Translations under genes and position numbers: made by a program
Notes under the pieces: model-generated
Told to the model about the DNA's origin: nothing
Seen by the model: the letters and a program-made list of their open reading frames with translations, nothing else
Databases searched by the model: none
In this document: piece by piece, positions 18,330-39,313 of the stretch
Layout of the letters: every line of letters starts with the position of its first letter
Position numbering within the stretch: the stretch's first letter is position 1
Assembly: GCA_020849765.1 (NCBI GenBank)
Contig: JADLAY010000017.1
Span: 44,906-108,905 of the forward strand
Reading direction: 5' to 3'
From: Anaerolineae bacterium
Lineage (GTDB): Bacteria > Chloroflexota > Anaerolineae > Aggregatilineales > Phototrophicaceae
DNA length: 64,000 bases

Positions 18330-19367
18330 ATGGCATACGGCAATCGTATGAACTTCTACGGCCACACAAGCCTGATGGAAGGGTCGGTGAATATGAGTTT
18401 GGAGACATCTCACGTGCAGTTGGCGCAAGCGATGGCACATCTCGAAAAAGATGAAACAGCCGAAGCGTTGCGCTTGCTGAATGACCTGATTGAAAAGGTC
18501 GACCTCCTCGACGCGCATCGTTTGCGCTTCACCATCTTGATAAAACGAATCGACAATCCCCATGATCTACGCGCATCACTGGACGTGTTGCGAACGGAAG
18601 CCCCTGATATATACAGCGCCGGGTTGGTGGAACTCGAGACTCAAATTCACAATCGTTTGAGCGAATTGCAGGACGGGATTACCGAAGCCACGCAGCGTGC
18701 CGAGATGCAGTCGTACCTCGACGAATACGACGCACTTGTGGTGTTGAGCGACCTGTTCCCCGTCATTCAGGTTGCCCGTGGGCTGGGCTATATGGCCGCC
18801 GCTCGCATCAGGGACAAAAAGGGGCAACCGGGCACCGAATCCCCCTACGAACATCTGCGGAGATTGCTCGCTAAAGACATGGCGGTCCCTTTCATGCGCG
18901 AACGTAATGAAACGGACAGCGTCGACGATACACAGGCCGAAAGGTGGCGCATGACCGCAGAACAGGCACTGTCTGCGGCGCTGATTTCCTTAACGCCGAA
19001 TCATCCATCCGTTGTCGAGATCCATGAAGTCTTAGGGATGCTCTACGAGGGCATGCATGAATACAGCAAGGCACTGCGGTCCTTTCAGGCCGCAATAGAG
19101 CACGGCAGCAGCAACATGGAGGACAAGGTACACGAACTCACAACGAAGATCAAACAGGAAACAGAGCGTCTGGCACTGGAGCGAGTCGATTCACTCCTGG
19201 CGAACCAACACCTGGACGAAGCCGAAACCTGCCTGGCGGAGTATGCGCCAGATGCGTTGACCGATGCCTGGCACTTACGTTATGCGGAACTCGCATTGCT
19301 ACGTGGTGACCGCGAAACAGCAATGCATCACTACGCCCTCATCCTGCCCCTTGTCCACAACAAATGA
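18330..19367 (+). CDS. All-helical, TPR-like repeat protein, function unknown
   Basis: 345 aa with natural composition in a lower-GC patch. Start uncertain (ATGs at 18330, 18348, 18375, 18390). The stop is 15 nt before the next gene's ATG (AAGGAG RBS), so an operon. Confidence 0.6.
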   Translation: MAYGNRMNFYGHTSLMEGSVNMSLETSHVQLAQAMAHLEKDETAEALRLLNDLIEKVDLLDAHRLRFTILIKRIDNPHDLRASLDVLRTEAPDIYSAGLVELETQIHNRLSELQDGITEATQRAEMQSYLDEYDALVVLSDLFPVIQVARGLGYMAAARIRDKKGQPGTESPYEHLRRLLAKDMAVPFMRERNETDSVDDTQAERWRMTAEQALSAALISLTPNHPSVVEIHEVLGMLYEGMHEYSKALRSFQAAIEHGSSNMEDKVHELTTKIKQETERLALERVDSLLANQHLDEAETCLAEYAPDALTDAWHLRYAELALLRGDRETAMHHYALILPLVHNK

Positions 19368-19382
19368 GCAAGGAGATACCTG

Positions 19383-22124
19383 ATGGACTGGAATGATCCT
19401 TTCGTTGTGAGTAAAGCCTACGCGAAACTCCGCTCCATCGATCCGCCTGTCAATGCCGGATCAGATGCGGCTGTCCTTCCTCACGTGGCATTCAACGTGC
19501 CCGCCGATGACGTCAGGCGCCGAGCGCTTGCGGGTGTGCTTCATCTTCATCGCCAGGGTCGCCAGCAGTTTGATTTTCTGCCGCACCTGGAGACAGCCCT
19601 CCTATATGGCGACTTCGATGAGGAGACCAAACGCACGCTGCGCGCTGAAATCCGGGCGATTGAACGCGAGCGCCAGCAAGCTGCTTTTGCGACGATTCGC
19701 AGACTCAAGCGGAAGAAACTGCATGTCCAACCGAAACGCCGTTCGACAACCCGCCAACCCGCATCGTTTGTGATGCAGGTGACCGACGATAGCTGCATCG
19801 TCCGCTTTGGCTACCGGCTCACTAACGTGCGCGCAGTGCGCTTTGACATGCCCGTCGAGGCGGAAGGCGCGGCGTTACTCAGAACGCTGACTCAGGCTGT
19901 TGAAATCTGGAAAGACCGCCTCAGCCTGGGCCTTGAAGCTGACTTTACCTGGCGCTATTCCAGCGAGGCTCACCGTGTGAATCTGGAGTTGCTGGTTGAG
20001 CTTCATTTGCCGGAACCTGAAATGGCGGAGGAAGTCGTTCGTGGCCTACAAACCATCATTGAAAACCAACAGCCATTTCCCGAAGTCTATCATTTTGCGC
20101 GAATCGTCGAAAGGAAGCATCTTAAGAATTTCTACGGCAGCACATCGTTTGCCAGCGTCGCGGAGATCGTGCGCCATGAAGGTGTGATGGAGTATGAAGG
20201 GAAGAACCTCTATGTGATCTTTCCGGTGAAGGTGGATAGCGACCGCTTACACGATCTCATGGTCTACCTGCGTAGCGCAACGGATGGCAACGTCATCGAC
20301 ATCAAGATACGCCCCTCTGCGGTGACGCGCTCAGAGATCGATGCCGCTCTCGAGGCTATCACCATTGGCGTGAGTTATTATGACGAGGACAGCGAAGAGA
20401 TTCGGCTGAAAATGTCGGAAGGCGCGATCTTTGACCATCAATGGCTGAAAGCGCTGGATGCTTACCGGATGATGCTTTCCCAGATCCACAGCCAGGCTTA
20501 CGAAGTGCGCCTGCGTGTTGCCAGCAAAACGGATATCGACATCTTGCCGCTCGCCACGTTGGCCGGGCGTTCGCTCCTTGGCCTGGGAGCCTTCGACGTG
20601 ATTCCGGCGGCCTATGGTGCTCGGTCAATCGCCCTTGACGATCTGTCACCTCGCACCCGCGCCCCGGCAGAACTATCTCGGTTGCGCCGCATGTGGTCGC
20701 TTGTCGAAACAGCTTTTGTCACCCGCCTGCCACGACCATCTGCGGCGGGCATACCGGGAATCCCAATGACCCAGGTTAAGCCCCACCGGATACCCTCCGG
20801 GCTGCCTGAAGAGGGCTGTGTACTTGGACAGGTCACATCACAGGGAGAAACCACACCCACCCTGGTAAAACTACCTTACGTCGACCGCACACGACATGTC
20901 TATGTCGTCGGCCGAACCGGCACCGGCAAAACGACCATGCTGCATAACATGGCGCTGCAAGACATCGAAAATGGGCATGGTGTTGGGGTGATCGACCCCC
21001 ATGGCGACTTGATCGATGCGTTGTTGGAGCGCATACCGCACCATAGAGCCGGGGATGTTGTCCTGTTTGACCCTGGGGATATCTCGCGCCCGGTGGGTTT
21101 GAATTTGCTCGACGTGGAGGGCCCCATTGCGCAGAATTTGGCTGTCGCCGATTTTATTGGCTTGATGTACAGCATGTACGATCCGGGCCACACCGGGATC
21201 GTCGGCCCTCGATTCGAGCAAAGCGTGCGCAACAGCATGTACACCGCGATGGCAATACCCGGTGCGACCATCATCGACGTGCTGCGCATTATTAGCGATA
21301 ACCGGTACAGTCACGACGTCCAGAAGTATCTCACCGATCCGATTGTCAAAGACTATTGGGAGAAGATATACGACAGCCAGAGTGACTTTCATCGCAGCGA
21401 AGTCAAAGACTACATCACCAGCAAGTTCAGCCGCTTCACATCCGATCGTATGGTGCGGCAGATTATCGGCCAATCCAAGACCAGTCTCAATTTCGCCGAC
21501 ATTTTCAACAACAAGAAGATTCTGCTCGTCAATCTGGCGAAAGGGCGTATCGGCGAGTTCAACAGCCAGTTCCTGGGCTTCATTCTCGTATCGCAATTGT
21601 TGATTGCCGCATTCCAACGTGTGAACCAGGCTGTTGATCTGCGTATCCCATACTATCTGTACATTGATGAGTTTCAGAACTTCGCCACACCCGGCCTGGG
21701 GGCCATGCTTTCGGAGGGGCGAAAATATGGACTGGCGCTCACGCTGGCGCATCAATTCATCCATCAGCTGGATGTCAAAATCCGTGAAGCGGTTTTCGGT
21801 AACGTAGGCACTATCTGCGCTTTCCAGGTTGGGTTGCAGGATGCAGAGTATCTGGCTCGCGAGATGTACCCCGTCTTTGGCACTGACGATCTGGTCAATT
21901 TGCCAGCATATCATGCCGCGTCCAAGATTTTGGCGCACAAACAGACCCTGATGCCGTTTGTGATGCAGACGCTGCCCGAACAGAATCAGCCGCGAAAGGA
22001 AGTTGCTGACGCCATCCGGACTTTCAGTGGCCTGACATATGGGAGTAACGCGGCTGTCGTCGAAGACAACATTCGCGCTCAATTCGCGCTGCCCCTACAG
22101 AAACGTATGGAGCTGCTGACCTGA
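19383..22124 (+). CDS. Large P-loop ATPase of the HerA/FtsK/VirD4-TraD type with an unrecognised ~480-aa N-terminal region
   Basis: Walker A VVGRTGTGKTT (about nt 20905-20940), then VGVIDPHGDL. Walker B-like YYLYIDEFQNF. EGRKYGLALTLAHQ (TraG-D_C/HerA-like). No TM segments. Confidence 0.75.
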   Translation: MDWNDPFVVSKAYAKLRSIDPPVNAGSDAAVLPHVAFNVPADDVRRRALAGVLHLHRQGRQQFDFLPHLETALLYGDFDEETKRTLRAEIRAIERERQQAAFATIRRLKRKKLHVQPKRRSTTRQPASFVMQVTDDSCIVRFGYRLTNVRAVRFDMPVEAEGAALLRTLTQAVEIWKDRLSLGLEADFTWRYSSEAHRVNLELLVELHLPEPEMAEEVVRGLQTIIENQQPFPEVYHFARIVERKHLKNFYGSTSFASVAEIVRHEGVMEYEGKNLYVIFPVKVDSDRLHDLMVYLRSATDGNVIDIKIRPSAVTRSEIDAALEAITIGVSYYDEDSEEIRLKMSEGAIFDHQWLKALDAYRMMLSQIHSQAYEVRLRVASKTDIDILPLATLAGRSLLGLGAFDVIPAAYGARSIALDDLSPRTRAPAELSRLRRMWSLVETAFVTRLPRPSAAGIPGIPMTQVKPHRIPSGLPEEGCVLGQVTSQGETTPTLVKLPYVDRTRHVYVVGRTGTGKTTMLHNMALQDIENGHGVGVIDPHGDLIDALLERIPHHRAGDVVLFDPGDISRPVGLNLLDVEGPIAQNLAVADFIGLMYSMYDPGHTGIVGPRFEQSVRNSMYTAMAIPGATIIDVLRIISDNRYSHDVQKYLTDPIVKDYWEKIYDSQSDFHRSEVKDYITSKFSRFTSDRMVRQIIGQSKTSLNFADIFNNKKILLVNLAKGRIGEFNSQFLGFILVSQLLIAAFQRVNQAVDLRIPYYLYIDEFQNFATPGLGAMLSEGRKYGLALTLAHQFIHQLDVKIREAVFGNVGTICAFQVGLQDAEYLAREMYPVFGTDDLVNLPAYHAASKILAHKQTLMPFVMQTLPEQNQPRKEVADAIRTFSGLTYGSNAAVVEDNIRAQFALPLQKRMELLT

Positions 22125-22566
22125 CAACCCGTAATGCAAAGGCAAGAATGCCACAGAGCATAAGGCGAAGACTGGCTTCAGGTGAGCAAGTACCAACGGC
22201 CAATGAGGCGAGAACTGCCGTCAGGGGTCGTCGGCAGTCACCTGTGGCAATACCCAGGACGTTCAACCAGCGGCGAAGATCGGCTTGAGGACGAGCGCGC
22301 CGCCGAGGCAGACGAAGATGTAGACGAGATTGACGACCGCGCGGGTCGCCCAGGGATGGTGCGAGAAATCGAGCCCGACCGCGCGCCCAACGATCACAAC
22401 GACGGTCGCCAGGTCGTGCAGGCCCGCCCGAAATGACGAACGTCATCAGCAGCGCGATCACACAGCGTGGGATTCGGCCTCTCACACGGAAGGCTCATGC
22501 AACCGATGCTAACGCGGCGGCGTATACGGGGTTACGACTCGTGAACACAAATGCAGGGCATTGATC

Positions 22567-23271
22567 ATGGCGAAGGCACAACCGCAGACGTCCAGGCGAC
22601 ATTCGTGGATCGGCCCGATCCTTGCCGCGGTGATGTTCATCGCCGTCACCGGCGGGCTGATCTACGCCATGAATACGCTCGGCACGGAGCGCTTGCAGCA
22701 GATCGTGCGCGACGCCGGGCCGCTCGCCCCGCTGATCTACATCCTGCTGCGCGCGGCGACCTACGTTTTCGCCCCGCTAACGACCGGCCCGATCCAGATC
22801 GCGAGCGGCGCATTGTTCGGCGTCTGGGGCGGCATTATCCTGTCGGTCATCGGCGAGACGCTCGGCGGCAGCATCAACTTCTTCATCGGGCGGCGCTTTG
22901 GGCGCCCGGTCGCGCTGCGGCTGGCCGGTGAGGAAGGGCTGAAGAAAGCTGAGGAGTACTACCAGCTCGTCGGCGATTGGCGCGGGCTGGTCGTCGCGCG
23001 GTTGGTGCTGTTCGCCATCTGGGACTTCCTCAGCTACGTGATCGGCTTCACGCCCGCGAAGTTCATCCATTACCTGCTCGTGTCGCTGTTCGTCGGCGCC
23101 ATCCCGACGGCAGCGGCCGTCTTCCTCGGCTCACAGTTAGGCGGCGACAATCAAACACTGCTGATCGTCGGCCTGATCGTCCTCTGCGTCGTCTTGCTGC
23201 TGCCGGTGCTGTTCAGCAAGCGCATCCGCCATTGGATGAGCACGCGCGGTTCCGCCAAACCCGGGTTGTAA
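22567..23271 (+). CDS. TVP38/TMEM64 (DedA-related, SNARE-associated) family membrane protein
   Basis: ..PLIYILLRAATYVFAPLTTGPIQIASGALFGVWGG..INFFIGRRFGRP.. is the family signature. ATG 22567 is preferred over TTG 22561. Confidence 0.8.
   Translation: MAKAQPQTSRRHSWIGPILAAVMFIAVTGGLIYAMNTLGTERLQQIVRDAGPLAPLIYILLRAATYVFAPLTTGPIQIASGALFGVWGGIILSVIGETLGGSINFFIGRRFGRPVALRLAGEEGLKKAEEYYQLVGDWRGLVVARLVLFAIWDFLSYVIGFTPAKFIHYLLVSLFVGAIPTAAAVFLGSQLGGDNQTLLIVGLIVLCVVLLLPVLFSKRIRHWMSTRGSAKPGL
23158..23249 (+). repeat. Direct repeat copy A (3' end of the TVP38-family gene)
   Basis: 92 nt, 3 mismatches to 24104-24195 by hand alignment. Confidence 0.8.
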
Positions 23272-23359
23272 GCAGGTGATGGGTTTGCTGCAGCAGGGAT
23301 TAGCCGACTATACTGACACAAAGACTGAGTAGGCTATCAGAAGACAAACGGAGGCACGG

Positions 23360-24061
23360 ATGATGGATGCCAGTTTGATTCAACAAGCATATACCAGCAT
23401 TCAGCAGCACTTTGTCGAAACGGGACGCGCTCCACATTACACCGAATTAGCCTCGCTCCTGAGGATTACGCCCGACGAGGCACGCGCAGTCCAAAGCGCC
23501 GCAGCCAAAGCCGGTGTCGGGTGCTGGATTAGCGCAGACACCGATTACATCGCCTCATGGGCACCCTTCTCAAACATCCCCACCCAGTATCTCGTCACGG
23601 TAGACGGCCAACAAAAATGGTATGCGCAGTGAGGCCTGGAATCGCTGGCCGTGGGCTGGCTCTTTCCGGGCAAGGAAGTGCGCATAGAAGCGCGCTGTCT
23701 TGATTGCGGCGAGTCTATCCTCGTGCGCACAAAGGATGGCGAACTTCTGGACGCAAATCCGGACACCATTATCGGGCACATCAGCCTTCCCATCCGCCAA
23801 TGGGGAGCCGTCGCCAACGCCTTCCTCTGAAGTCACATCAATCTCTTCCGGTCGGAAGAACATGCGAAAAACTGGTTGCTCTATGATCCGTTGTCCGAGG
23901 AGTCGATCATGTCGCTGGCGGAGTGGATGCGGCTTGTCCGTGTCGGCTTGTGGCGCAACCGACTGCAGCCGGATTATCTCGCGCGGGTAGGCGAGTATCG
24001 CGCTGAGTTCCTGGCTACGGTGCATGAGATGGGCAAGACAGGCCCCTTCTGGCAGGTTTGA
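23360..24061 (+). CDS. MerB (alkylmercury lyase)-family protein with two in-frame TGA codons at the catalytic-Cys positions; candidate selenoprotein (alternative: pseudogene)
   Basis: One frame runs from ATG 23360 (GGAGG upstream) to TGA 24059-24061, interrupted only by TGA 23630-23632 and TGA 23828-23830. Motifs WYAQ-U-GLESLA, ARCLDCGESILV and FL-U-SHINLFRSEEHAKNW parallel MerB YAW-C96-ALD, the internal Cys region and F-C159-C-HVHFF..EDW. Confidence 0.6.
23644..23660 (+). other. SECIS-like hairpin 1
   Basis: GCUGGCC-GUG-GGCUGGC: 7 bp (5 Watson-Crick + 2 G-U). The loop starts 19 nt after the A of TGA 23630-23632. Confidence 0.4.
23844..23859 (+). other. SECIS-like hairpin 2
   Basis: UCUUCC-GGUC-GGAAGA: 6 Watson-Crick bp. 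The loop starts 20 nt after the A of TGA 23828-23830. Confidence 0.45.
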
Positions 24062-24103
24062 TAGACCAGGAAACAACTTTAGAGAGCTGATGCTCTCCAA
24101 ATG

Positions 24104-24195
24104 CTGCTGATCGTCGGCCTGATCGTCCTCTACGTCGTCTTGCTGCTGCCGGTGCTGCTCAGCAAGCGCATCCGCCACTGGATGAGCACGCGCGG
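24104..24195 (+). repeat. Direct repeat copy B (orphan duplicate of the TVP38-family 3' end)
   Basis: Encodes an orphan frame MLLIVGLIVLYVVLLLPVLLSKRIRHWMSTRGTSKGDC. Preceded by the hairpin GAGAGC-TGAT-GCTCTC (24082-24097). Confidence 0.8.
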
Positions 24196-24321
24196 CACCT
24201 CCAAAGGCGACTGCTGAGCCGTAAATTCACACGAAACCCGCGAAACGTAGGTCACGAGTCGGGTAGCGCGGCGCATTCTGTGGCAGGATCGGGCCGTCGC
24301 TCAGCGAATGGAGTACTGCCC

Positions 24322-28428: not shown

Positions 28429-28568
28429 GGTTCGCTCCTGAAATAGTGAATGGACTTCTCCAATGAACCATGTTCAGGCGGCAAACCGAAGGCGTCATCC
28501 GCACAAAAAACCGTACAATGATCTCATAATAGCTATTTTACGAAAACTCAGGCAATTTACGGGGTTTG

Positions 28569-30917
28569 ATGGTTCAGGAAATCACCTTCAGTCAATGGCT
28601 CAAGACGCGGCGCAAACTGTTGGATCTCACACAGCAGGCGCTGGCGGATCGCATCCACTGCTCGGTCGAGACGATCTTCAAGATCGAAGCCGGGCAGCGC
28701 CGCCCCTCACCGCAGATCGCGCGGCTGATCGCCGACGAGCTGAACATCCCGGCGCATGAGCAAGACGACTTCATCGGCTTCGCGCGCGCCGAAGCGCCAA
28801 CCCGCCTGCACAGCCACCGAGTCGAGTTCACGCCCTGGCGCGACGCCTTCATTCCCCAGCACAATCTGCCGCTGCAGTTCACGGCGTTGATCGGGCGCGA
28901 GCAGCACGCCCAGGAAGCGCTCGTGCGCCTGCGCGAGGAAGACGTGCGCCTGCTGACGATTCTGGGGCCGCCCGGCATCGGCAAAACCCGGCTCGCGATC
29001 CAACTGGGCAGCGACGCCCTGCTCGACTTCCCCGACGGCGTCACGTTCGTCGAGCTGGCCTCCGTCACCCAGCCTGACCGCGTGATCCCGGCCATCGCCC
29101 GCACGCTCGACATCTCGATTGCCGGTCACAAGAAGCCGCTCGAAAGCCTGCAAGCCTATCTCTACGAGCGGCACACACTGCTCATCCTCGACAACTTCGA
29201 GCAAATCCTGGACGCAGCGCCCGACGTGCATGCCCTGCTGGCCGCCTGCCCGCTGATCAAGGTGGTCGCCACCAGCCGCGCGCCGCTCCGTCTGCGCGGC
29301 GAACGGCAGTTCCCGTTACAACCGCTGGCGCTGCCCGCACGCATCAACGATCTGAATGTCCACGGGCTGGCAGGCTATGCGTCCATCCAGTTGTTCGTCG
29401 ACCGGGCACGAGCTGTACAGCCCGGCTTCGCGCTGAGCGCCGATAATGCCGCCGCGCTGGCTGCCATCTGCGCCCGGCTTGACGGCCTGCCGCTCGCCAT
29501 CGAGATCGTCGCGGCGCAGGTGGCCGTGCTGCAACCGGAGGAAATCCTCGATCATCTGACCGGGCGGCGACTGCTGCAAAGCCAGGGCATGGCCGATGCT
29601 GATCCGCGCCATCAAACACTGAACGCTGCCATCGACTGGAGCTATCGCCAGCTTCATGACGACGAGCAGGTCTTCTTCCGGCGTATGGGCATCTTCGTCG
29701 ATGGCTGTGCGCTCGAAGCCGCTCAGGCTGTCTGCCAGCCGGAGCAGGACATTGTCCAGGTGCTGTCCAAGCTCGTGAGCATGAATCTGCTCAAACGCGA
29801 AACGGGCGCGGGGGGCGCATCCCGCTACCAGATGCTGGATACACTGCGCGCCTTCGCCCGCCAGGAACTGCATGCGCAAGCTGAATGGGATCCGCTTCTA
29901 TCACGCCACGCCGCTTATTTCCACGACTTCGCCCTGGCGCAAGAGGCGAGCGTGCGCAGTCACGGTCAGGTCGACGGCCTGGAGCGCGTCGAGCGCGAGC
30001 ACAGCAATCTTCAGGCGGCGCTGGATTACTTCCTGGCGACAGGGGCATGGGCGCAAGGGCTGACGCTGGCCGGGGCGCTGATCGAGTTCTGGGTCTATCG
30101 CAACCACCTGCTCGTCGGCCTGGATTACGTTCGCGCGTTCCTGGATGCCACGGCGGGCGATCCAGCGCTGCACGCGAGCCGGGCGCGGCTGTTGAACGGC
30201 GCGGCTATCCTGGCCTATTTTGCCGGGGATTATGCCGCCATCGGCCCCTATGCCGAAGCGGCACTCGCGGCAGCACAATCGGCCAACAACCCGCGCGAGA
30301 TCGCCTGGGCCTGCGCCAACCTGGGCATGATGAGCGGCGGCATGCACGATTTCGCAGCGGCGATCCGGTTCTTCGAGCAGGGCATGGCTGCAGCTCAAGA
30401 AGCCGATCTCCCATGGGAGACGGGCAGCCTGCTCAACGGCCTGGGCGAAGTCGCGCGCAGCCAGCGGCGCTATGAGGAAGCGATGCGCTACTACCAGCGC
30501 GGGCTTGCCGATGCCCGAAAGCTGGGGAATCACTGGCTCGCGGCGCACATCCTCGACAACATTGCGCACGCTGCCTATGCCCAGGGGCAGTTCGAGGTCG
30601 CCGCCGCATACACGCGCCAGAGCCTGGAGGCGAGCATGATCCTGGGCGACGAACGCGGCATCGCCATGTGCCTGGAGAAGATGGGCGGGATCGCCATCGC
30701 CAGCGGCGCGCCCGAACGGGCAGCGCACCTCCTCGGCGCGGCGGAAGCCCTGCGCAAAGCCAAGAACGCGCCGGTCGAGGGCATGGATGCCGAGGATTAT
30801 CATCGCTTCGTGGCCGACGTGCGCCAACAGCTCGCCCCGGATGCGCTCGAAGCAGCCTGGCAGTTCGGGGGGCAAACGCCCCTGGCGCAGATCATCGATC
30901 AGGTGCTCAACGGCTGA
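28569..30917 (+). CDS. STAND-type regulator: XRE HTH + NB-ARC/AAA ATPase + TPR repeats
   Basis: HTH FSQWLKTRRKLLDLTQQALADRIHCSVETIFKIEAG. Walker A LGPPGIGKTRLA. Walker B LLILDNFEQ. The C-terminal half is TPR-like. Confidence 0.8.
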   Translation: MVQEITFSQWLKTRRKLLDLTQQALADRIHCSVETIFKIEAGQRRPSPQIARLIADELNIPAHEQDDFIGFARAEAPTRLHSHRVEFTPWRDAFIPQHNLPLQFTALIGREQHAQEALVRLREEDVRLLTILGPPGIGKTRLAIQLGSDALLDFPDGVTFVELASVTQPDRVIPAIARTLDISIAGHKKPLESLQAYLYERHTLLILDNFEQILDAAPDVHALLAACPLIKVVATSRAPLRLRGERQFPLQPLALPARINDLNVHGLAGYASIQLFVDRARAVQPGFALSADNAAALAAICARLDGLPLAIEIVAAQVAVLQPEEILDHLTGRRLLQSQGMADADPRHQTLNAAIDWSYRQLHDDEQVFFRRMGIFVDGCALEAAQAVCQPEQDIVQVLSKLVSMNLLKRETGAGGASRYQMLDTLRAFARQELHAQAEWDPLLSRHAAYFHDFALAQEASVRSHGQVDGLERVEREHSNLQAALDYFLATGAWAQGLTLAGALIEFWVYRNHLLVGLDYVRAFLDATAGDPALHASRARLLNGAAILAYFAGDYAAIGPYAEAALAAAQSANNPREIAWACANLGMMSGGMHDFAAAIRFFEQGMAAAQEADLPWETGSLLNGLGEVARSQRRYEEAMRYYQRGLADARKLGNHWLAAHILDNIAHAAYAQGQFEVAAAYTRQSLEASMILGDERGIAMCLEKMGGIAIASGAPERAAHLLGAAEALRKAKNAPVEGMDAEDYHRFVADVRQQLAPDALEAAWQFGGQTPLAQIIDQVLNG

Positions 30918-37119: not shown

Positions 37120-38775
37120 ATGCCTAGTGCATTCATCTCTTATCGCCGCGTCGAAAGCGCTGCCCTTGCCACGCTGATCGCCGTCACCTTGCAAGACAAG
37201 CATGGCATTGAAGTTTTCGTCGATACCCGCAGTACCGACGGTGGTGGCCTGTTTCCTGACCGCTTGCGCCGCGCCATTGAACATTGCGACGTATTCGTTT
37301 GCCTGCTTGGCGCGACGACGCTGGAATCCGCCTGGGTGATGGAAGAGATCGAACATGCGCATAACTTGCGCAAGACGATGATCCCGGTCTTCCAGGAACG
37401 TTACGTTCCGCCCAACCCAATTCCCAGCGTACACGTCGAAGCACTGCTGCAATCGGATGGATTGCAGGTTCTTGATGTGCGCAACGTGTACGTCGATCAA
37501 GCTATCTCCGACTTGGCGTCAATGATCAGAAGATCCGTCGGTGCTCCAATGCCGCCGCCCAGGCGAGGCATCGGGTTACCTCTGATTGCCGCAGTCTTGG
37601 TGTTGCTCGCGTTAGTCGCCCTTGGCATCTTCCTGGTGTCTCGCGCCATGGAATCCCCCACTTCAACAGCCAGTCCGACACAGATCGCGGGTGGTGTGAC
37701 CGCCAGCACCACCATCGAGCAACCCACCGCTGCACCGACAGAAGATGCGGCTGGCACACGGGTCGCCCAATTGCAGGCCAGCCTGACCGCCTTGGCGCAA
37801 CTTCAAATCGTAGGGGAAGAAACCGCGACGGCGGACGCCGCAACGCGTGGTGCTGCTGCACAAATCGATGCGACTTTGCGGGCAGCCGCGGACACCGCGA
37901 CCGCGGCTGCCCTCGCTATCACGCAATCCGTATTGGGTGAAACGGCGACTCAGCAAGCCATTGACGCGACCGCGATAGCTAGTGTATCGACAGATACTCC
38001 CACCCCATCCGCGACACCTACGCCTATCACACTGGAATATGCTTACGCCCAGGCAGTAAATTATGATGATGGTCAGGGAAATACGGCATGGACGCCTATT
38101 GCATATACGTTTGGGGATGGCGTGACGATGGTTCTAGTACCGACGGGCTGCTTTTTGATGGGTAGCAGCGAAGGTAATATTAACGAACAGCCCATCAATG
38201 AGCAGTGCTTTGTCGTGCCATTCTGGATCGACCAGACTGAAGTGACACAGGCCGATTTTGTACGTCTGAGTGGACAAAAGGCGGCCCCGAATGAATTTCC
38301 TGCTGACCAACACCCCGTTGAGAATATCACTTGGTTCGAAGCACGTAATTTCTGCGTGTTGCGGGGTGCGCGCTTGCCAACAGAGCGCGAATGGGAATAT
38401 GCAGCCCGCGGCCCTGAAGGATGGATCTACCCATGGGGAAACATGTGGGACACGAGCTATGCTGCATGGAACCGGAGTAGATCGCAAAGAACCGCCATCG
38501 TGGGAACAGCATCAAATGGGGTTTCCTGGGTCGGTGCACAGGATATGAGCGGCAACGTCTGGGAGTGGGCGAGCTCCCTTTACCAGCCGTACCCCTATGC
38601 GGCAGACGATGGACGAGAGGGGGATATGAGAGACCTTGCGGATGCTCAACGTGTGTTGAGAGGCGGTTCTTGGTACTACGTCAGTACTATTGGCCTACGC
38701 GCGCCTACGCGCAGCGGACTCGACCCAATAGCCAAAGACAATCTATTAGGTTTCCGTTGCGCCCGCGATGTCTGA
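37120..38775 (+). CDS. TIR domain - TM - Ala/Thr-rich linker - FGE-sulfatase (SUMF1-like) domain fusion protein
   Basis: TIR_2-like FISYRRVES..CDVFVCLLG..SAWVMEEIEHA. TM IGLPLIAAVLVLLALVALGIFLV. C-terminal WIDQTEVTQADF, ENITWFEARNFC, RLPTEREWEYAARG, RVLRGGSW, GFRCA. Confidence 0.8.
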   Translation: MPSAFISYRRVESAALATLIAVTLQDKHGIEVFVDTRSTDGGGLFPDRLRRAIEHCDVFVCLLGATTLESAWVMEEIEHAHNLRKTMIPVFQERYVPPNPIPSVHVEALLQSDGLQVLDVRNVYVDQAISDLASMIRRSVGAPMPPPRRGIGLPLIAAVLVLLALVALGIFLVSRAMESPTSTASPTQIAGGVTASTTIEQPTAAPTEDAAGTRVAQLQASLTALAQLQIVGEETATADAATRGAAAQIDATLRAAADTATAAALAITQSVLGETATQQAIDATAIASVSTDTPTPSATPTPITLEYAYAQAVNYDDGQGNTAWTPIAYTFGDGVTMVLVPTGCFLMGSSEGNINEQPINEQCFVVPFWIDQTEVTQADFVRLSGQKAAPNEFPADQHPVENITWFEARNFCVLRGARLPTEREWEYAARGPEGWIYPWGNMWDTSYAAWNRSRSQRTAIVGTASNGVSWVGAQDMSGNVWEWASSLYQPYPYAADDGREGDMRDLADAQRVLRGGSWYYVSTIGLRAPTRSGLDPIAKDNLLGFRCARDV

Positions 38776-39313
38776 TTGCGACCACACTTACCCCCAGCGC
38801 AAATCGCCTCGTCTCCGCGACTATGATTACGCACAATCCGGTGCATATTTCGTCACCATCTGTACCTATCGACGTGAGCATCTCTTTGGCGAGGTCGTCG
38901 ATCAACAGATGCATCTGTCGCGGATGGGATCGATTGCTCATGACCTGTGGTACACCATCCCCGATCATCATTCGCAGGTCGAACTCGATGCGTTCGTCGT
39001 CATGCCCAACCATGTCCACGGCATCATCGTTGTAGGGACGCCGCGTGCGGCGTCCGGCGGCGAGAATGATGGGCGATCGGCGGACAGGGCACGCCCTGTC
39101 CCTACGGAATCGCTCGGAGCGATCATCGGTGCGTACAAGTCCGCCGTGACACGCACCGTCAATCAGGCGATGAGGTTGGTCGCGCCGACGGTCTGGCAGA
39201 CGCGCTATGACCATCACATCATTCGCAGCGAGCACGATCTAGACCGCATCCGCGCCTACGTCGCCGACAACTCCGCGCGATGGCTGGATGACACGCTGTT
39301 CACAAAAGGATAG
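38768..39313 (+). CDS. REP-associated tyrosine transposase (RAYT, IS200/Y1 HUH family)
   Basis: YDYAQSGAYFVTICT, HUH motif MPNHVHGIIV, VWQTRYDHHIIRSEHDL..YVADNSARW. The ATG overlaps the upstream stop (ATGTCTGA). Carries its own REP doublet in-frame. Confidence 0.8.
   Translation: MSDCDHTYPQRKSPRLRDYDYAQSGAYFVTICTYRREHLFGEVVDQQMHLSRMGSIAHDLWYTIPDHHSQVELDAFVVMPNHVHGIIVVGTPRAASGGENDGRSADRARPVPTESLGAIIGAYKSAVTRTVNQAMRLVAPTVWQTRYDHHIIRSEHDLDRIRAYVADNSARWLDDTLFTKG
39032..39105. repeat. REP doublet (REPIN-like) inside the RAYT CDS
   Basis: GTAGGGACGCCGCGTGCGGCGTCC (39032-39055) and GGACAGGGCACGCCCTGTCCCTAC (39082-39105) in inverted orientation. Translated as ..GTPRAASGGENDGRSADRARPVPTE.. Confidence 0.7.

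Follow-up and report, generated by a model that had tools for sequence, protein, structure and literature searches.

In the alkylmercury lyase MerB, two cysteines (Cys96 and Cys159) bind mercury and Asp99 protonates the carbon (PMC8261052). Members of this superfamily that contain selenocysteine (Sec) are already known. A MerB-like selenoprotein has been described as 'Organic mercuric lyase MerB2' in 17 genomes (Peng et al. 2016) and was named SaoL (NF040728) by Haft & Gwadz (2022/2023). SaoL has one Sec, which forms a Cys-Sec (CU) dipeptide on the Cys159 column, and is encoded in a nine-gene SAO locus. Here we describe a MerB-superfamily gene (positions 23360-24061, forward strand) in a stretch of 64,000 nucleotides (nt) from an Anaerolineae bacterium (contig JADLAY010000017.1), referred to below as the window. 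This gene has TGA codons in place of the codons for both catalytic cysteines. To judge from its relatives, it very probably encodes a genuine MerB-superfamily selenoprotein with two Sec residues. The explanation that best accounts for the data as a whole, to which we give a probability of roughly 0.6, is a full-length two-Sec protein of this superfamily that would likely cleave carbon-metal(loid) bonds.

A single frame runs from the ATG at 23360, with a Shine-Dalgarno-like GGAGG (23350-23354) 5 nt upstream, to a TGA at 24059-24061, which is directly followed by an in-frame TAG. Direct translation gives 233 codons, and the only internal stops are a TGA at codon 91 (23630-23632, site 1) and another at codon 157 (23828-23830, site 2). 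Read directly, the sequence agrees here with the first-pass annotation of the window, which had also pointed out that ordinary gene finding would miss the gene: the list of open reading frames (ORFs) contains only fragments of it. TGA is the commonest stop in the window and the usual terminator of its genes (22 of the 43 large ORFs). Because it terminates so many of them, genome-wide reassignment of TGA is absent in the host, as had been suspected earlier.

With the two TGAs read as Cys, the product matches the Pfam family MerB (PF03243) over residues 70-193 (E=1.7e-22, 80.1 bits against a cut-off of 27). This profile comparison bears out the MerB layout that had been recognised by eye. A phmmer alignment with the MerB family of structures 1s6l/3f0p and with MerB2 (5c17) places codon 91 on Cys96, Glu94 (GAA, 23639-23641) on Asp99, Cys113 on Cys117 and codon 157 on Cys159. 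In the first-pass annotation, the TGAs had already been assigned to the two catalytic columns and Glu to the Asp99 column; this assignment is now anchored on solved structures. The predicted Sec157 lies on the same column as the Sec of SaoL, and Ser158 occupies the column of MerB Cys160.

Glu is found at the Asp99 column in all 145 genes of a codon alignment of the relatives and in at least 90% of the sequences of a 22-sequence protein alignment, where the exceptions are Asp. More distant homologues with Cys at both sites (Cys/Cys) have either Asp or Glu there. Cys113 is part of a CxxC motif, Cys113-Leu-Asp-Cys116 (23696-23707), in which Cys116 is an additional cysteine of the family. Both are invariant in protein alignments of 22 and of 38 sequences and are conserved to 99% in the codon alignment. 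The canonical catalytic signature (Cys96/Asp99/Cys159/Cys117) is absent: the corresponding columns hold UGA (predicted Sec), Glu, UGA (predicted Sec) and Cys, which are chemically analogous. In addition, the protein scores far below the cut-offs of the canonical MerB equivalogs (35.9 bits against 200 for NF033555 and 39 bits against 193 for NF009710).

The fold was examined using an AlphaFold2 model of a homologue (P0004) that is 58% identical to the window protein. The model was built from the 38-sequence alignment with Trp placeholders at both sites and has a predicted local distance difference test (pLDDT) value of 95.7 and a predicted template-modelling (pTM) score of 0.90. When compared with the PDB using Foldseek, its only significant matches are MerB and MerB2, which make up the entire top 11 (E-values of 2e-9 to 1e-6), with template-modelling scores up to 0.67 at 15-19% identity. 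In its N-terminal part, the model is weakly similar to winged helices of the LexA type. On this model, the window protein has the MerB fold.

Relatives were found in large numbers: 554 in species-representative genomes and at least 556 confirmed on metagenome contigs. The DNA of 80 from each source was examined, giving 160 loci. These are the loci closest to the TGA/TGA query, and the proportion of 93% TGA/TGA applies to that clade, not to the superfamily as a whole. Tabulation of TGA against TGC or TGT at the two codons, which the first-pass annotation had proposed, gave TGA/TGA at 148 loci and TGC or TGT followed by TGA at 11. The remaining locus (L116) is damaged and pseudogene-like: site 1 has TAG as well as TCA, and GTA stands in place of the second TGA. 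Thus, site 1 is TGA in 148, TGC or TGT in 11 and TCA in one of the loci, and site 2 is TGA in 159 and never Cys. The TGA/TGA loci span at least five phyla. Their carriers include Desulfobacterota (Syntrophales, Syntrophobacter, Desulforhabdus and Geobacteraceae), Nitrospirota, Chloroflexota (Anaerolineales and Dehalococcoidia), Actinomycetota and Acidobacteriota, among others. The TGA/TGA gene is present, for instance, in the complete chromosomes CP070811.1, CP070639.1, CP070630.1, OY969814.1 and OY969584.1, and the carriers also include the isolate or near-isolate genomes of Desulforhabdus sp. TSK (NZ_BQXM01) and Syntrophobacter sp. SbD1.

Both columns are occupied by Cys in P0006, in P0077 and in many more distant full-length homologues (for example, P0241, P0242, P0245 and P0283), and these distant Cys/Cys proteins share the C-terminal extension of the Sec/Sec clade. 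Switching between Cys and Sec at site 1 is seen even among the closest relatives: P0005 (L161, 79% identical) has TGC, and L081 (82%) and L082 (75%) have TGA. The alignment of UGA with Cys in homologues, the classical criterion for a selenoprotein, is accordingly observed in the sequences at both sites.

These data also bear on the possibility that the gene is a pseudogene or is split into three separately translated pieces. Standard ORF calling does return only fragments, and one relative (L116) does look decayed. However, TGA occupies exactly these two codons in 148 of 160 loci from different phyla, and none of the 145 distinct genes of the codon alignment contains a further in-frame stop. 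The segments that follow the TGAs have neither a start codon nor a ribosome-binding site of their own and are highly conserved. Across the 145 genes, amino-acid identity to the window protein is 0.57 upstream of the TGAs and 0.50 both between them and downstream of them. Directly after the second TGA comes the family's strongest motif (S-x-M-N-L-F-R-S-E-E-H, from the 22-sequence alignment), and the residues immediately after the first (G-L-E...) are also among the most conserved of the protein. Decay or splitting is extremely improbable, and the sequence comparison indicates that the gene is intact and under selection. The earlier argument for Sec over decay was based on the window only; it is upheld by these observations, by the occurrence of Cys in distant homologues and by the constraint on the hairpins described below.

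Each TGA is followed by a hairpin resembling a selenocysteine insertion sequence (SECIS). Element 1 (23634-23671), identified from its fold and its conservation, has an upper stem of 7 base pairs (bp; 23644-23650/23654-23660) and a GUG loop (23651-23653). Element 2 (23844-23859) has a 6-bp stem (UCUUCC/GGAAGA, 23844-23849/23854-23859) and a GGUC loop (23850-23853). Both fold as the first-pass annotation had drawn them. In the alignments of the two sites (141 and 144 sequences, respectively), a 6-bp upper stem is paired in every sequence at site 1, and the six pairs are formed in 143-144 sequences at site 2. Across the family, the site-1 loop is mostly 5 nt long (CGUGC or GGUCA, compared with GUG in the window) with G-U invariably at +22/+23; at site 2, 150 of 159 sequences have GGUC as the loop.

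The Escherichia coli fdhF SECIS, which the first-pass annotation had cited as having GGUC in its loop at a similar distance, does so in the real sequence: the loop lies at +22 to +25 from the U of the UGA, with G23 and U24. The GGUC of site 2 (+23 to +26) and the G-U of site 1 (+22/+23) are within 1 nt of this position. Both sites of the window gene therefore carry what is generally expected of a bacterial SECIS at the sequence level, a G(U) apical loop approximately 20 nt after the UGA. An 8-bp lower stem can be drawn for element 1 (23634-23641/23664-23671) but is specific to the window. It was rejected as a conserved feature: it is paired in 52% of the family, which is no better than shuffled sequences.

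Constraint on the hairpins was measured as normalised codon entropy at conserved amino-acid columns of the 145-gene alignment. This synonymous entropy is about 0.7-1.0 over most of the gene, and outside the hairpins its values are never below 0.44. It collapses in hairpin 1 (0.36, 0.53, 0.60 and 0.08 for codons 96-99) and in hairpin 2 (0.20 for codon 158 and 0.02, 0.00, 0.05, 0.00 and 0.15 for codons 162-166). At site 2, for example, Leu, Phe, Arg, Ser and Glu are fixed as CTC TTC CGG TCG GAA across phyla. The site-1 stem is intact in all 148 genes with TGA (mean folding energy, dG, of -7.9) but in only 5 of the 11 with Cys (mean dG -5.3), several of which have also lost the G-U of the loop. 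In a Cys/Cys gene (L167; a single gene, and so one clean example instead of a statistic), both hairpins have disappeared (dG -0.5 and 0.0) and Phe-Arg-Ser-Glu is recoded as TTT CGT TCT GAA. Since the stems weaken or vanish where Cys replaces TGA, the comparison indicates that the hairpins are functional elements and that their constraint is tied to the UGA.

The two sites do not behave in the same way. Site 1 toggles between Sec and Cys codons and site 2 is constant in the 160 loci; Cys at site 2 occurs only in homologues that are more distant or were fetched separately (P0003/L168, P0006/L167 and P0077). One of these, L168 (563-1273; P0003, JGI sample 3300067036), has a Ser codon (TCA) at site 1 and a Cys codon (TGT) at site 2. 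Both of its SECIS-like hairpins are still intact despite these codons, which suggests that this lineage lost Sec coding very recently.

Statistics on this family drawn from protein databases are distorted because its genes have been called either as fragments or with Trp filled in. Many database relatives are proteins of 155-158 residues that have Cys at site 1 and stop exactly before site 2, and some of 134 residues stop exactly before site 1. Others are fragments of 90, about 156, 63 or 77 residues. When 1.84 billion representative sequences were searched exhaustively with a profile, 1303 matches were obtained (414 at E<=1e-10), which bear the footprint of the two UGAs: the fragments end at profile position 90 or about 155, or begin at 93 or 159. 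'Full-length' database proteins have Trp at both sites in 23 of the 38 examined (P0001, P0002, P0004, P0007, P0009-P0011 and others). No TGG was found at either column among the fetched relatives, a set that does not include the contigs of the Trp/Trp proteins themselves. These calls are most simply seen as an artefact of gene callers, in which TGA was read as Trp.

The Trp/Trp calls could nevertheless be taken literally, as could the lack of Sec machinery in the window and fetched flanks. The UGAs might then be read as Trp or Gly under an alternative code, or as Cys or Trp by near-cognate decoding stimulated by the hairpins. We consider this very unlikely. TGA is the commonest ordinary stop in the window, and the many phyla represented among the loci use the standard code. 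The UGAs occur only at columns that hold Cys in homologues, the G-U loop of the hairpins is of the fdhF type and is spaced as in fdhF, and close relatives read at the DNA level have TGA and never TGG. Decoding of both UGAs as Sec is, on these comparative grounds, the part of our interpretation in which we have high confidence.

A number of observations weigh against the overall explanation. Folded as single sequences, the hairpins are no better than dinucleotide shuffles (z = -1.2 at site 1 and +0.2 at site 2), and for this reason their significance rests on the comparative data. RNAalifold and pair counting revealed no compensatory substitutions in the stems, which are invariant, and an Rfam scan of 23300-24150 at E<=10 gave no match. 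ARAGORN found no tRNA-Sec in the 64-kb window or in any fetched locus. No selA, selB or selD was identified among the domains of 40 window ORFs or in the fetched flanks, and tblastn with an E. coli SelD sequence as the query found no SelD in either. With respect to function, clustering of 897 neighbouring ORFs from 144 loci revealed no recurrent neighbour (the largest cluster, a histidine kinase, is present at 16 loci). The changes of Asp99 to Glu and of Cys160 to Ser158 depart from characterised MerB. Finally, bis-selenolate binding of Hg(II) should be very tight, making turnover and product release problematic without a partner. With such a tight hold and no MerA nearby, the metal might be released by the CxxC motif or by cellular thiols, the substrate might be another organometal(loid), or the protein might act stoichiometrically.

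In the mechanism that we propose, each UGA would be recoded by its own SECIS-type hairpin, located 11-13 nt downstream within the coding sequence, presumably via SelB and tRNA-Sec as in E. coli fdhF. Sec91 and Sec157 would take the places of the metal-ligating Cys96 and Cys159 of MerB, and Glu94 that of the proton donor Asp99. The resulting Sec/Sec/Glu triad would carry out protonolytic cleavage of a carbon-metal(loid) bond: in an organomercurial or related organometal(loid), the soft metal centre would be held by the two selenolates and the leaving carbon would receive its proton from Glu94. More speculatively, Cys113-x-x-Cys116 may help to free the metal, which would be tightly bound, or may reduce a diselenide between the two Sec residues. 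The gene would act alone, outside a mer or SAO operon, in mostly anaerobic lineages. The first-pass annotation had called the product a candidate 'di-selenocysteine lyase'. The two-Sec part of this name has gained the backing of the comparative data; the 'lyase' part draws on the fold and the active-site columns. By analogy with MerB, we would give carbon-metal(loid) lyase chemistry an even chance, and mercury is a possible but rather doubtful substrate.

The main rival is a protein that contains two Sec residues but is not a lyase. It might be a module for binding, sequestering or chaperoning soft metals or metalloids, a sensor, or a redox protein with a Sec91-Sec157 diselenide resolved by Cys113/Cys116. 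Such a role would suit a gene found alone, without conserved partners, and with an extra conserved CxxC. MerB itself keeps Hg(II) until MerA takes it, and Cu binding is described for a MerB variant (Christakis 2021, PMC8261052; Haft & Gwadz); two selenolates would grip Hg tighter still, in keeping with a stoichiometric role. Moreover, most prokaryotic selenoproteins are redox proteins (PMC13188914). On the other hand, an acid is kept at the proton-donor column (Glu in the close clade and Asp or Glu in distant homologues), which is expected for catalysis over simple binding, and the MerB core as a whole and the motif after the Cys159 column are conserved in the family. We regard such a non-lyase role as tenable but the less probable alternative to carbon-metal(loid) cleavage by the two-Sec protein.

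The surroundings of the gene are those of an ordinary chromosome, with GyrA, GltX, tRNA-Gln, GreA and cyclophilin, among others. Its nearer neighbours encode a VTT/DedA-family protein, an alpha/beta hydrolase, GreA and others. It lies outside a nine-gene SAO locus and outside a mer operon: no mer (including merA, merR, merT or merP), sao, hgc or sel genes were found among the window ORFs or the clustered neighbours of the 144 loci. A search for a second selenoprotein gene in the window, by joining pairs of ORFs across TGA, yielded only artefacts from adjacent genes or from different frames.

Similarity between the window and its relatives is restricted to the gene itself (23360-24065). A direct repeat flanks the gene: its two copies of 108 nt are 93% identical, are spaced by 946 nt and both lie on the forward strand. 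The left copy (23152-23259) is the 3' end of the VTT/DedA-family gene (22561-23271). The right copy (24098-24205) carries a 38-codon remnant ORF (24101-24217; MLLIVGLIVLYVVLLLPVLLSKRIRHWMSTRGTSKGDC), a duplicate of the C-terminal helix of the VTT protein. No relatives share these repeat flanks. In sequence, the repeat looks like a scar left when the gene arrived by insertion or recombination, which fits a gene that moves alone. A 6-bp hairpin (GAGAGC-UGAU-GCUCUC, 24082-24097) lies about 20 nt past the TGA-TAG stop and abuts the right copy. It has no run of T and no G-U loop at SECIS spacing.

Several other genes of the region were noted. A gene for a TPR protein and then one for a 913-residue TrwB/TraG/HerA-like P-loop ATPase (18330-22124) lie just upstream of the VTT gene, and an HTH-AAA/NB-ARC-TPR (STAND-type) protein is encoded approximately 5 kb downstream of the MerB-like gene (28566-30917). 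These genes may indicate that the insertion lies in a region that is variable or rich in mobile elements. Further away, an ORF at 37120-38775 encodes an N-terminal TIR domain fused to an FGE-sulfatase (SUMF1-like) domain and adjoins a fragment of an IS200-like Y1 transposase (38768-39313).

The results have consequences for annotation. Genes of this branch account for more than 550 matches in species-representative genomes, and the number of metagenome contigs with one is at least as high. At present these are called as fragments of 90, 156 or 77 residues, as 'hypothetical protein', or in full length with Trp at the two positions. It is rare for a prokaryotic protein to have more than one Sec: two or three are found in only a small subset of 119 families and subfamilies. 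In the multi-Sec entries with a stated motif, the Sec residues are close together (UxxU or UxxxxU) or in fused domains (PMC13188914). The protein described here would bring together, at a single metal site, two Sec residues that are far apart in the sequence and have a SECIS each, and these would stand in for both catalytic cysteines of an enzyme that has been studied in depth. This would provide a natural test of the effect of exchanging Se for S on carbon-metal bond cleavage and on metal release.

The family may also be relevant to ecology. Surveys of mercury genes require the Cys96/Asp99/Cys159/Cys117 signature (PMC8261052) and would exclude two-Sec proteins; those that screen for Cys96/Asp99/Cys159 cannot see them. 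Among the carriers are anaerobes that are often connected with mercury methylation (sulfate reducers, syntrophs, iron reducers and Chloroflexota). As mer surveys are blind to the family and its carriers have this link, it offers a testable candidate for organometal turnover outside the mer system. A more specific proposal, which we consider improbable, is that the stand-alone Sec/Sec/Glu protein is a mer-independent demethylase for methylmercury or another organometal in anaerobes. If true, it would be the degradative counterpart of the methylation proteins HgcA/HgcB, which are themselves listed among selenoproteins in a 2026 review (PMC13188914), and its bis-selenolate active site would be one found in no characterised enzyme. 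It would operate in sulfate-reducing, syntrophic and iron-reducing guilds and in Chloroflexota, hidden from mer surveys by fragmented gene calls and by the missing Cys/Asp/Cys signature.

The first-pass annotation could not say whether Sec-containing MerB homologues had been catalogued. They have, but only as SaoL, whose single Sec is on the Cys159 column; neither the clade described here nor its additional Sec on the Cys96 column has been catalogued. The table of the 2026 review, which lists 119 families with a 'No. of Sec' column and covers Haft & Tolstoy 2025 and deep-Sep 2025, includes under MerB only SaoL, with one Sec (PMC13188914). A two-Sec MerB family is absent both from this table and from NCBIfam release 20. 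Two 'metal-binding' entries with two Sec residues, MbdU (NF045648) and the UxxU protein (NF041115), gave no match in the NCBIfam scan and their motifs differ. Nor does MerB appear in the main text of BSepDB 2026 or in that of deep-Sep. The gene thus belongs to a large and systematically mis-annotated family that is not found in the selenoprotein catalogues checked.

Compared with known systems, the hairpins of the window gene resemble the fdhF SECIS in being short, in lying in the coding sequence just after the UGA and in having a G-U apical loop, which at site 2 is identical to that of fdhF (GGUC). They differ in that the stems conserved in the family are only 6 bp long and no conserved lower helix or bulged U was detected. 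The Cys/Cys members (P0006, P0241, P0242, P0245 and P0283) have the same architecture, including the C-terminal extension (RLxxDY...GxxGxFW), and Asp or Glu at the acid column. Unlike the window gene, they encode ordinary proteins without UGA, and their identity to the Sec/Sec clade is about 20% to 60%.

With MerB (EC 4.99.1.2, plasmid R831b, PDB 3F0P/1S6L) and Bacillus MerB2 (5C17), the window protein shares the fold, the Pfam family, the three active-site columns and the buried Cys117 column. It is only about 16-19% identical to them, is predicted to have Sec/Sec with Glu (in the order Sec/Glu/Sec) in place of Cys/Asp/Cys and has Ser in place of Cys160. In addition, its gene is not in a merA/merR/merT/merP context.

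SaoL is similar in several respects: it is a MerB-superfamily selenoprotein of anaerobes with Sec on the Cys159 column, and its database entries are routinely truncated at that UGA. However, SaoL has retained the Cys and the Asp of the Cys96 and Asp99 columns, where the window protein has predicted Sec and Glu, and the window protein scores 43.2 bits against the SaoL (NF040728) cut-off of 140. SaoL has Cys-Sec; the window protein has Leu-Sec-Ser, and its relatives have Ala, Asn or other residues before Sec but never Cys in the fetched loci. The window protein also has the extra CxxC and a C-terminal extension of roughly 60 residues. Finally, SaoL is encoded in the SAO locus, mostly in Firmicutes, whereas the family of the window gene has no conserved neighbourhood and occurs mainly in Desulfobacterota, Chloroflexota, Nitrospirota, Actinomycetota and Acidobacteriota. 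MerB-like selenoproteins were therefore already known; what is new is the predicted replacement of both catalytic cysteines by Sec, with two SECIS-like elements and outside any SAO context.

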